From Lachnospiraceae bacterium (GTDB lineage: Bacteria > Bacillota > Clostridia > Lachnospirales > Lachnospiraceae): DNA of 64,000 nucleotides. Both the position numbers and the translations under genes were made by a program. Where the stretch lies: positions 8,089-72,088 of the forward strand of contig JAETON010000008.1 in the NCBI GenBank assembly GCA_021771695.1. The letters are read 5' to 3'. Shown here in pieces: positions 11,734 through 13,314 of this stretch. How positions within the stretch are numbered: position 1 is the first letter of the stretch; each line of letters begins with the position of its first letter. The notes beneath the pieces are model-generated. The model made no database searches. It was not told where the DNA came from and saw nothing but the letters and a program-made list of their open reading frames with translations.

Positions 11734-11757
11734 ACCTCCTGACTTTCTCTATAGTTT

Positions 11758-11788
11758 ATCATAAAGGGTGACGTAAGGGAACTGTCAA
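11758..11788 (-). promoter_or_regulatory. MerR-type promoter with 19-bp spacer
   Basis: TTGACA-gttcccttacgtcaccctt(19)-TATGAT on the minus strand; the over-long spacer is the hallmark of MerR-activated promoters. Confidence 0.7.
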
Positions 11789-11871
11789 GAAAAATATGAA
11801 ACAAAAAAATGAAAGGATTGGATGCCGTATCCATGGAAGATTTCGAGTCAAAAATTTTCTCATAATAAACT

Positions 11872-11911
11872 AAGAAGCCGCACGATGAAAATATCCATCG
11901 AACGGCTTCTT
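11872..11911 (-). terminator. Intrinsic terminator downstream of the two-gene cassette
   Basis: Stem AAGAAGCCG..CGATG / CATCG..CGGCTTCTT. Confidence 0.7.
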
Positions 11912-11920
11912 TTAAAAATC

Positions 11921-11933
11921 ATTATTAAACAGG
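11921..11933. repeat. Left copy of a 13-bp inverted repeat (ATTATTAAACAGG)
   Basis: Exact reverse complement at 12691-12703. Confidence 0.75.
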
Positions 11934-11962
11934 ACTTTCTATGAATCCTATTTTATATGGTA

Positions 11963-12115
11963 TTAGTTCATAAAAATATAATATAGAACAGATACTATAA
12001 AAATAAATAACACAACTAATCCAAAATACGCAGTTGATTTGCCATAACCTTGCCAATCTTTTTGAAGTTCCTTTGTTTTATCAGGATCAATGATTTTATT
12101 TTTTTTATTACTCAT
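11963..12115 (-). CDS. 50-aa single-pass membrane protein (absent from the ORF track)
   Basis: RBS AAGGAG directly after the upstream stop; MSNKKNKIIDPDKTKELQKDWQGYGKSTAYFGLVVLFIFIVSVLYYIFMN*; charged N-half, ~20-aa hydrophobic C-half. Confidence 0.75.
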   Translation of the reverse strand: MSNKKNKIIDPDKTKELQKDWQGYGKSTAYFGLVVLFIFIVSVLYYIFMN

Positions 12116-12126
12116 TATACACTCCT

Positions 12127-12675
12127 TTATGGTAAAGAAATAGACTTGGTTCCTGTCATAGTATAAGTACCTCCCGCTGTAAGTTTACAAGTTCCTTTAA
12201 AGGTCATTTTTTTAGCTGACCAAGATGATACCTTTACAGATGGATTTGAATAACCTGTAGCCCCATAAACACCAGAGACGCCTGTTACAACTGGAGATTC
12301 ATATCCTACTGCATTTGTTGACTTAAAAAATACATTAACATAAAAAGTAATATTTGCATTTAATAAGTATGAACTAGCTTGTCCAGATCCTTTACAAGTT
12401 ACACCTGTTCTATAGGTTTTATAATAGTCATATGAAGAAGGAACTGCCCTAGTAGTAATTATCGGCTTATCATCGTACCTTGAGTCATATACAACTTCAA
12501 CTTTTTGTTCATCTACAATTTTATGTGTTACAGGAATACTATTTTGAAAAGCAATTCGAAGTATATCCTCACTATTTAACTCCTTTTCAGATGCAAATAC
12601 CGAGGTTGTTAAATTAAAGCTAATACTACACAACAAAACTAAAGCTAATACAATTTTTTTCCTCATTGATTTCAT
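12127..12675 (-). CDS. Secreted protein of unknown function
   Basis: RBS AGGAGG; Sec signal (MKSMRKK + hydrophobic + VFA|S); G/S/T/Y/K-rich C-terminal half; visibly AT-rich DNA. Confidence 0.75.
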   Translation of the reverse strand: MKSMRKKIVLALVLLCSISFNLTTSVFASEKELNSEDILRIAFQNSIPVTHKIVDEQKVEVVYDSRYDDKPIITTRAVPSSYDYYKTYRTGVTCKGSGQASSYLLNANITFYVNVFFKSTNAVGYESPVVTGVSGVYGATGYSNPSVKVSSWSAKKMTFKGTCKLTAGGTYTMTGTKSISLP

Positions 12676-12690
12676 ATTCTCCTCCTTCTG

Positions 12691-12703
12691 CCTGTTTAAT
12701 AAT
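12691..12703. repeat. Right copy of the 13-bp inverted repeat (CCTGTTTAATAAT)
   Basis: Exact reverse complement of 11921-11933; overlaps the last 2 nt of a TATAAT box (12702-12707, minus strand). Confidence 0.75.
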
Positions 12704-12753
12704 TATATTAACAATATCATATTCTTATTAAATAAACAATAAACTTTAAGAAA

Positions 12754-13278
12754 TCAATTACATACGTCAACATACCTTTTGACATTTGTCACAAATAAAC
12801 ATTTTGTAATTATGACAAACATCAAAAAATATAATTTCATTTCCACATTTTCTTTTTTATTCTTTGAATCAACGTCTTTTTCCCCTTTTTTAGGTACTGG
12901 CTCTTCTAATACCCACGGAATCTCTATATGAAATATCTCAAAACAAAATCCAGAAGGCTTCATTGCAAAATTAGGTCTTTCCTCTAGATACTGTACAACT
13001 ACACTTACAAAACTGTTTTCTCCCTGAAAATCAAGTTCATATCCTTCTTCTGAAAATGCATCTCCTTTAACAGAATAGTATAAAATATAATGTATTTTTT
13101 CGTTATCCTCTGAATCAAACCAGATTATCTCTTCCGGATTTGAAACATCAATTGCAAATTGTTCAAAAAAACTTTTCACACCATCCGGTGCCCTCGAAAA
13201 TGCCTTCCAAAAATTTCTACAATAGGCACATTGACAAGTTGAAATCAAATTTTCATATTTTTTTTGTTTCTTTTTCAT
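12754..13278 (-). CDS. Hypothetical protein with CxCxxC motif
   Basis: 'CQCAYCRNF'; GTG start coupled to the end of the CDF gene. Confidence 0.6.
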   Translation of the reverse strand: MKKKQKKYENLISTCQCAYCRNFWKAFSRAPDGVKSFFEQFAIDVSNPEEIIWFDSEDNEKIHYILYYSVKGDAFSEEGYELDFQGENSFVSVVVQYLEERPNFAMKPSGFCFEIFHIEIPWVLEEPVPKKGEKDVDSKNKKENVEMKLYFLMFVIITKCLFVTNVKRYVDVCN

Positions 13279-13314
13279 CCACCAAGAACGTCCAATCCTG
13301 CTCTTTTATTTCAA

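Follow-up and report, generated by a model that had tools for sequence, protein, structure and literature searches.

A probable long-range helix between the two untranslated regions of the mRNA of a horizontally moving two-gene cassette in Anaerostipes and related gut Clostridia

Results

A perfect inverted repeat encloses two genes

The subject of this report is a small operon of a Lachnospiraceae bacterium and the pair of short inverted repeats that bracket it. We analyzed 64,000 nucleotides (nt) of contig JAETON010000008.1 (GenBank assembly GCA_021771695.1, positions 8,089 to 72,088 of the forward strand), a stretch that we call the window and in whose numbering coordinates are given. The sequence ATTATTAAACAGG lies at 11921-11933 and its exact reverse complement at 12691-12703; when one mismatch is allowed, the match grows to 15/16 bases (11918-11933 and 12691-12706). 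An earlier note on this DNA, made from the sequence alone, had described a perfect 13-base-pair (bp) inverted repeat here that encloses a ribosome-binding site, a gene for a protein of 182 amino acids (aa) and a gene for a protein of 50 aa. All of this is borne out by the window, in which the arms enclose the Shine-Dalgarno sequence and both genes, all on the minus strand. The same note had placed a terminator hairpin and a TATAAT box at or outside the arms, as we also find, with the TATAAT overlapping the 5' arm by 2 bases. It had further called the DNA AT-rich, in agreement with a GC content of 30% for the bracketed segment as against 36.5% for the window. The principal features are as follows.

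12691 to 12706 (core 12691 to 12703), minus strand: putative 5' arm of a closing helix, with the core ATTATTAAACAGG in the sense of the messenger RNA (mRNA); compensatory changes are seen in homologous arms
12681 to 12687, minus strand: Shine-Dalgarno sequence AAGGAGG of the 182-aa gene, just outside the helix, as read from the sequence; the layout is the same in other lineages
12127 to 12675, minus strand: gene for the 182-aa protein, a secreted orphan with a Sec signal peptide ending ...VFA/SEKE and two conserved cysteines
11963 to 12115, minus strand: gene for the 50-aa protein, charged in its N-terminal half (motif KTKELQKDWQGYG) and with a transmembrane segment at the C terminus
11918 to 11933 (core 11921 to 11933), minus strand: putative 3' arm of the closing helix, with the mRNA-sense core CCTGTTTAATAAT
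11872 to 11911, minus strand: intrinsic terminator hairpin of the operon, an inverted repeat outside the 3' arm with compensatory stem changes in a second cassette of the same species (L036)

In the sense of transcription, the 5' arm ends 3 nt before the Shine-Dalgarno sequence, and its extension to 12706 includes one A.G mismatch. On the other side of the genes, 30 nt separate the stop codon of the small gene from the start of the 3' arm, and a further 6-9 nt lie between the end of that arm and the stem of the terminator.

Inverted repeats of this length are common in the window and the genome

The earlier note had cautioned that a 13-mer in AT-rich DNA could be a matter of chance and had proposed a shuffle test. 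Such repeats are indeed common: the window holds nine distinct perfect inverted-repeat pairs of at least 13 nt at a spacing of 100-3000 nt, and dinucleotide shuffles yield 6.1 +/- 2.3. A second 13-nt inverted pair occurs within the same 2.7 kb, and the genome (2.85 Mb, 36.8% GC) has 348 perfect inverted pairs of that kind. The probability that a 13-mer is common to both flanks of the gene pair is 4e-4 for flanks of 99 nt and 78 nt and 0.0055 for flanks of 200 nt, values that still amount to roughly one case per genome. Of the pairs in the genome, 23 have both arms outside long open reading frames (ORFs), as compared to 4.4 expected when the noncoding segments are shuffled.

The 13-mer itself has three copies in the genome, namely the two arms and one within a lipoprotein gene. 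A genome-wide search for a 13-mer family thus returned a single extra copy, in coding sequence, and the 13-mer flanks nothing else; the idea of a repeat family was therefore dropped. Chance was the explanation that we favored at first, on the strength of the shuffles and because the closest orthologue lacks the same 13-mer. We abandoned it when related cassettes proved to have lineage-specific arms at the same relative place. Thus, the caution about chance holds for the repeat taken by itself and does not hold once relatives are compared, and it is because of the comparison across lineages, and that comparison only, that we judge the complementarity to be selected.

Related cassettes have their own complementary arms at the same position

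The two-gene cassette is found in at least nine diverged lineages, at unrelated loci. A search of each homologous cassette's own two flanks revealed a 5'/3' complement of its own, differing in sequence, in seven lineages (eight sequences). Six of the sequences are listed here.

Window: ATTATTAAACAGG, 13 nt of pairing
L036 (same species, 87% nucleotide identity): as the window plus one pair, 14 nt
L044 (50% protein identity): TTACAAAATAGATTA, 15 nt
L039 (75% protein identity): GGCATTCAGATATAA and TTATGTCTGAATGCC, 15 bp with one U.G pair
L042: TGTGTTGTATATTAATT and AATTAATATACAACATA, 17 bp with one G.U pair
L002 (Ca. A. avistercoris): GATCATTAAATGGGA and TCCCATTCGATGATC, 13 Watson-Crick pairs, one U.G and one A.C

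For the other two (L096 and L097), we set down a prediction before the sequences were fetched, namely that a 5' arm would be found about 28-31 nt before the ATG and a 3' arm soon after the stop codon of the small gene. Both fit: L096 has GTACCACATT(T)AGT at -29/+20, and L097 has ATACAAGAT..TTATAT at -31/+16. Across the helix-bearing lineages, a gap of 0-5 nt separates the inner end of the 5' arm from the Shine-Dalgarno sequence, which the arm never covers; the 3' arm follows the stop codon at a distance of 9-30 nt, leaving 4-12 nt between it and the stem of the terminator. The window and L036 have identical arms, each of which falls within the longest stretch of conservation in its spacer (22 and 24 nt, the 3' arm being in the 24-nt block), and the terminator beside the 3' arm shows compensatory stem changes between the two. 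The earlier note had asked whether the repeat is conserved in orthologous loci; what is kept in the seven lineages is the complementarity, and the sequence of the 13-mer is not kept.

Two lineages have no such helix. None was found in the A. hadrus-type cassette in a search that extended to 4 kb downstream, where further genes or a deletion follow the cassette, and none is present in the Catenibacterium copy, in which a terminator comes directly after the stop codon.

The arms covary and pair in predicted transcripts

Pairing between the flanks was measured with RNAduplex, using as input 60 nt from each side of the gene pair, taken upstream of the ATG and downstream of the stop codon, respectively. 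Cognate flanks of helix-bearing lineages gave energies of -15.7 to -30.0 kcal/mol, and noncognate combinations gave a mean of -10.6 (standard deviation 3.3). The difference was significant (Mann-Whitney p=3.6e-6) with the two helix-less lineages counted among the cognates, and this comparison of cognate and noncognate flanks is free of any bias from fitting sequences to a helix.

An unguided MAFFT alignment brought the arms of three sequences (window, L036 and L002) into register, and between the window and L002 it contains three double changes: T-A to C-G, C-G to T-A and A-T to G-C. The register that MAFFT alone gave for L039 was dropped, as its 3' side was displaced by a 3-column gap, and a helix-anchored alignment was used instead. 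In the helix-anchored alignment of the eight sequences, 81.6% of cells are standard pairs versus 51.0% in shuffles (0/500 as high), double-sided changes occur at 17/17 helix pairs, with three G.U wobbles, and the covariation score is 0.83 versus 0.24; because each sequence was fitted to its own helix, these numbers lean towards structure. Sliding the registers by 1-3 columns causes pairing to fall to 32-44%. The helices need not be perfect, since wobbles are tolerated, and the arms of three lineages are interrupted by a mismatch pair at the center, by a bulge or by an internal loop.

Folding of whole predicted transcripts (823-848 nt) placed the helix within the minimum-energy structure in 7/7 tested lineages, and the mean pair probability of the helix was 0.91-0.98 in six of the seven.

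Candidate promoters could place the 5' arm close to the start of the mRNA

Sequences that could serve as the promoter of the operon lie just upstream of the 5' arm and farther away, together with a conserved motif.

12702 to 12707, minus strand: the TATAAT of the earlier note, the best consensus -10 element in the window (10/12 match), with a 2-nt overlap with the arm
12716 to 12721, minus strand: candidate -10 element TATGAT, 12 nt upstream of the core arm, from the sequence
12743 to 12770, minus strand: candidate promoter TTGACG-16-TAAAGT, farther upstream, whose TTGAC/TGACA motif is kept in all helix-bearing cassettes
12780 to 12791, no strand assigned: palindrome TGACATTTGTCA, one copy of the conserved TGACA-N3-TGTMA motif

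The TATAAT is present at 12702-12707, as the earlier note had reported, but it is not conserved at that place in L002, L039, L096 or L097. What does recur among the lineages is a -10-like hexamer 8-13 nt upstream of the 5' arm (TATGAT in the window, TATACT in L036, TATAAT in L002 and in L039, TATATT in L096, TAAAAT in L097 and TAATAT in L044); L042 has candidates at 5 or 15 nt. With a hexamer at a distance of 8-13 nt, the 5' arm would begin 2-7 nt from the 5' end of the mRNA. For the window, TATGAT predicts a transcription start near 12708-12709, which would put the extended helix 2-3 nt from the 5' end. Every helix-bearing cassette has the TGACA-N3-TGTMA/ATCA motif, at 45-110 nt upstream of its 5' arm (in the window also at 12765-12770), and this motif could be the operator of some regulator or a conserved -35 element.

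The cassette lies inside a larger insertion

The operon belongs to a segment that is absent from relatives.

About 11790 to 13314, minus strand: lineage-specific insertion of 1.5 kb between a cation-efflux gene and a MerR-methyltransferase gene, with an empty site in congeners

Both arms lie within the insertion, whose cargo is three genes, for proteins of 174, 182 and 50 aa, and the terminator. A look for an empty site in relatives, as the earlier note had proposed, was successful: in four Anaerostipes congeners the cation-efflux and MerR-methyltransferase genes are 110-150 nt apart, and the edges of the insertion are located outside both arms. In two A. hadrus-type congeners the site is occupied by other cargo of 1.6-2.8 kb, which in one of them includes a gene homologous to that for the 174-aa protein. 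Of 19 congeners, only three carry the pair of 182-aa and 50-aa genes, each time at a different locus, and the cassette is single-copy in the genome under study. Distant copies adjoin a gene for an AraC regulator, insertion sequence (IS) elements or a gene for a type IV secretion system (T4SS) coupling protein; specifically, IS elements lie 30-500 nt upstream of the 5' arm in L041 and L042, and the T4SS coupling-protein gene is near L044. Such neighbors fit horizontal movement of the cassette.

The closest foreign copy, that of Ca. A. avistercoris (80% protein identity), shares DNA homology with the window from 11961 to 12796, that is, to a point 93 nt past the 5' arm. On the 3' side, homology between lineages stops near the outer edge of the 3' arm. 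The sequences immediately outside the arms (...AAAAATC and TATATTA...) contain no direct repeat, that is, no target-site duplication.

Weighing the explanations

The earlier note had put forward three readings of the repeat: (a) an invertible segment in which the genes flip relative to the promoter, (b) a mobilized gene cassette bounded by the repeats and (c) pairing of the two ends of the mRNA. According to the first, a recombinase acting in trans would turn both genes around with respect to a fixed promoter outside them, switching expression on and off, and the arms would have coevolved as matching sites. In its favor, what the 13-17 bp inverted repeats enclose is exactly the genes, the promoter being left outside; a secreted or surface-associated accessory protein such as this one is a typical target of phase variation; and elsewhere in the genome there are eight matches to serine and eight to tyrosine recombinases, two of them invertase-sized, that could act in trans. 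Yet, just as the earlier note had found no recombinase in its window, there is none on the contig (no match to PF00239 or PF00589 over the entire 103 kb) or beside the cassette in eight different contexts. A recombinase, moreover, needs a site that it can recognize, and the arms are almost wholly different in sequence between lineages and, in three of them, carry the central mismatch pair, bulge or internal loop described above; nor does inversion require that the arms be tight against the Shine-Dalgarno sequence and the terminator. All of the inspected contigs (12/12: five of this species, five of the P0011 type and two of the P0005 type) were co-linear, assemblies showing majority forms only, and an exact search of Joint Genome Institute (JGI) metagenome contigs for the inverted junction (the left flank AAAAATC followed by ATTATTAAACAGG and CAGAAGGAGG) gave no match, which is a weak negative. 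With arms that differ by lineage, unlinked recombinases and a single orientation in contigs, gene-flip inversion finds no positive support, and we regard it as decidedly unlikely. A mobile-element origin, in which the arms are the terminal inverted repeats of a small nonautonomous cassette resembling a miniature inverted-repeat transposable element or a relic of one, would be in keeping with the different locus occupied in each lineage, sometimes beside IS elements or a conjugation gene, and with the end of homology near the outer edge of the 3' arm. It is contradicted on the other side, where homology continues for at least 93 nt past the 5' arm and the TGACA motif lies upstream in all helix-bearing lineages. 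The limits of homology and the empty site place the arms inside the insertion of about 11790-13314, and for this reason the terminal-repeat model was rejected. The lack of a flanking direct repeat and the three genome copies of the 13-mer, which is not a multicopy element, also speak against it, and the repeats of a decaying relic would lose complementarity rather than retain it through double changes. The chance that this origin is the right one seems to us very slight.

Two other possibilities attribute less, or something else, to the arms. The match in the window could be an accident of AT-rich spacers without function, with the complements of other lineages coincidental or a neutral by-product, and the near-chance counts of 13-nt inverted repeats at window and genome level, as well as the two lineages that manage without a helix, would be expected if so. 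What makes this highly improbable is that seven lineages (eight sequences) have a complement at the same relative position, two of them predicted ahead, and that neither the difference between cognate and noncognate flanks nor the level of pairing, which was reached in none of the 500 shuffles, would be anticipated from coincidence. Alternatively, the arms could be paired DNA sites at which a regulator loops the operon, as their symmetry and the operator-like TGACA palindrome nearby might suggest. A protein-binding site would be expected to keep its sequence, however, and here the sequence changes freely, G.U-type changes included, while complementarity stays; we find this explanation hardly credible.

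The third reading, pairing of the 5' and 3' ends of the mRNA, is the one that the data support, through covariation in the seven lineages (eight sequences) and a fixed position with respect to the Shine-Dalgarno sequence, the stop codon and the terminator. Several observations count against it. Taken alone, the repeat of the window is indistinguishable from chance, and its helix, which is AU-rich, is no outlier at -15.7 kcal/mol when compared with noncognate pairs. If the TATAAT at 12702-12707 were the sole promoter, the RNA would include no more than about 7 nt of the 5' arm. The absence of the helix from the A. hadrus-type and Catenibacterium cassettes means that it is dispensable. Finally, covariation alone would be expected whether selection acts on an RNA helix or on an inverted repeat in the DNA, and the tally of internal G.U versus A.C pairs (3 versus 1) is too small to settle between RNA and a DNA strand. 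The features that point to RNA are the position of the arms relative to RNA landmarks, their spacing from the -10-like hexamers, the folds, the tolerated imperfections, the unrelated arms, the absence of a linked recombinase gene and the single orientation.

The two proteins and neighboring sequences

The 182-aa protein has no significant match in Pfam, NCBIfam or PHROGs and no match in plasmid and phage collections. A confident AlphaFold2 (AF2) model (predicted local distance difference test score, pLDDT, 82.5) consists of the signal peptide, one helix and an eight-strand beta domain, for which no structural neighbor was found in the PDB or BFVD. A word-based search identified 29 homologues, all hypothetical, and a profile search of 1.8 billion protein representatives gave 31 matches for the family. 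Assignments to DDE_Tnp_2 and LPXTG were rejected as weak, below cut-offs and confined to the signal peptide. The 50-aa protein with its KTKELQKDWQGYG motif is conserved in every lineage and its gene always follows the 182-aa gene; a fusion variant exists (P0012). The pair makes up an accessory module that moves horizontally, possibly composed of a secreted factor and a small membrane partner.

Other observations concern individual homologues. In human-gut metagenomes the secreted homologue of the A. hadrus type occurs as two common alleles (L071-L087 versus L048-L057), one full-length and the other with an in-frame deletion of 41 aa between the repeats ...YR/TGVT... and ...VV/TGVS... (P0019, 471 member sequences). 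In L041-L043 the expected ATG of the large gene is ATA. Within the insertion, the 174-aa ORF (12754-13278, minus strand) has no family match, its last ~30 codons overlap the promoter region of the cassette, and its counterpart in L036 is 146 aa long. Beyond the insertion, at 11745-11785, a MerR-type promoter, CTTGACAGTTCCCTTACGTCACCCTTTATGAT, is located upstream of the MerR-methyltransferase fusion gene; it is nearly invariant in five species and the surrounding spacer is not.

Elsewhere in the same genome we noticed two longer inverted repeats on a contig designated C110. One is a perfect 43-bp repeat around 100 nt (C110:31994-32179), just 3' of an ORF of 4027 aa, and the other is a 24-bp repeat around 127 nt (C110:39468-39642), between dnaB-like and tilS-like genes. 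A genuine inverton and a long RNA hairpin are both conceivable in each case.

Discussion

We propose that the arms probably constitute a long-range RNA helix, of the type described for the hbs mRNA of Bacillus subtilis, between the 5' and 3' untranslated regions (UTRs) of a bicistronic mRNA of about 0.83 kb. On this model, the 5' arm would begin a few nucleotides from the predicted 5' end and stop short of the Shine-Dalgarno sequence, and the 3' arm would lie between the last stop codon and the intrinsic terminator, such that pairing would loop the whole message and bring its 5' end beside the terminator hairpin. By analogy with hbs, the helix would most likely shield the UTRs from ribonuclease (RNase) Y and the 5' end from RNase J, both of which the host encodes (739.7 and 635.7 bits, respectively), and shielding of this kind would set the stability of the mRNA, and hence expression, without covering the ribosome-binding site. 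We infer that transcripts contain the whole 5' arm and that in vivo the helix forms and stabilizes the mRNA.

A more tentative idea, and one that we consider somewhat doubtful, is that the horizontally mobile two-gene cassette carries along a self-contained package for its own expression, to which the closing helix belongs. The package would run from the TGACA promoter/operator motif through the 5' arm and the Shine-Dalgarno sequence to the genes, and on to the 3' arm and the terminator. If so, the mRNA would define and protect its own ends wherever the cassette lands, and its expression would be insulated from the context of insertion. The excess of inverted repeats that bracket operons genome-wide (23 versus 4.4) could point towards a general clamp of this kind. 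Were the arrangement general, end-to-end mRNA clamps would be recurrent in accessory operons of gut Firmicutes, beyond hbs and icaR.

To our knowledge, the bacterial mRNAs known to pair their own 5' and 3' UTRs are a handful (hbs and icaR), each established from engineered mutants in one species. The cassettes described here amount to a natural compensatory-mutation experiment, in which seven lineages (eight sequences) keep a helix of 13-17 bp with almost every base changed, and they provide a phylogenetically supported test case in Clostridia that are abundant in the human and animal gut (Anaerostipes and relatives). In the hbs mRNA of B. subtilis, a 14-nt sequence of the 5' UTR pairs with its full complement shortly before the terminator (Braun, Durand & Condon 2017, PMC5737220). 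That pairing was verified by compensatory mutations, and it restricts cleavage by RNase Y and affects the 3' decay pathway (PMC5737220). Our case resembles hbs in its Firmicute host with both RNase Y and RNase J, in a helix that is near the Shine-Dalgarno sequence without covering it, in a complement of at least about 10 nt between the UTRs (13 nt here, or 15/16 when extended, and 13-17 bp in six other lineages) and in a 3' arm just upstream of the terminator (at a gap of 4-12 nt in seven lineages). It differs in that the mRNA is bicistronic and the operon is accessory and moves horizontally, in that the 5' arm is apparently near the 5' end, whereas that of hbs comes after two leader hairpins, and in that the pairing is backed by natural covariation in seven lineages rather than by engineered mutants and effects on decay. 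In the icaR mRNA of Staphylococcus aureus, the 3' and 5' UTRs of one message likewise pair with each other (Ruiz de los Mozos et al. 2013, PMC3868564); a UCCCCUG motif there base-pairs to the Shine-Dalgarno sequence, which prevents initiation and gives RNase III a substrate (PMC3868564). In our cassettes, unlike icaR, the helix stops 0-5 nt short of the Shine-Dalgarno sequence in every lineage, and thus repression by masking of the Shine-Dalgarno sequence is not the expected mode of action. A 2025 preprint indicates that long-range intramolecular pairing acts in vivo in mRNAs of B. subtilis (PMC12697547).

The cassette also has a superficial likeness to invertons, with its short inverted repeats around a segment near the promoter of a gene for a surface or secreted protein. 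Invertons, such as fimS, the cwpV and flgB switches of C. difficile and the invertible promoters of Bacteroides, usually flip a promoter or leader of 100-500 bp, and they do so by means of a dedicated or master recombinase to which their arms are recognizable. Here, in contrast, whole genes are enclosed, no recombinase is linked, the arms vary with lineage and one orientation is seen. The comparison carries a caution for surveys of invertons and transposons, namely that perfect inverted repeats that bracket genes can be features of the RNA.

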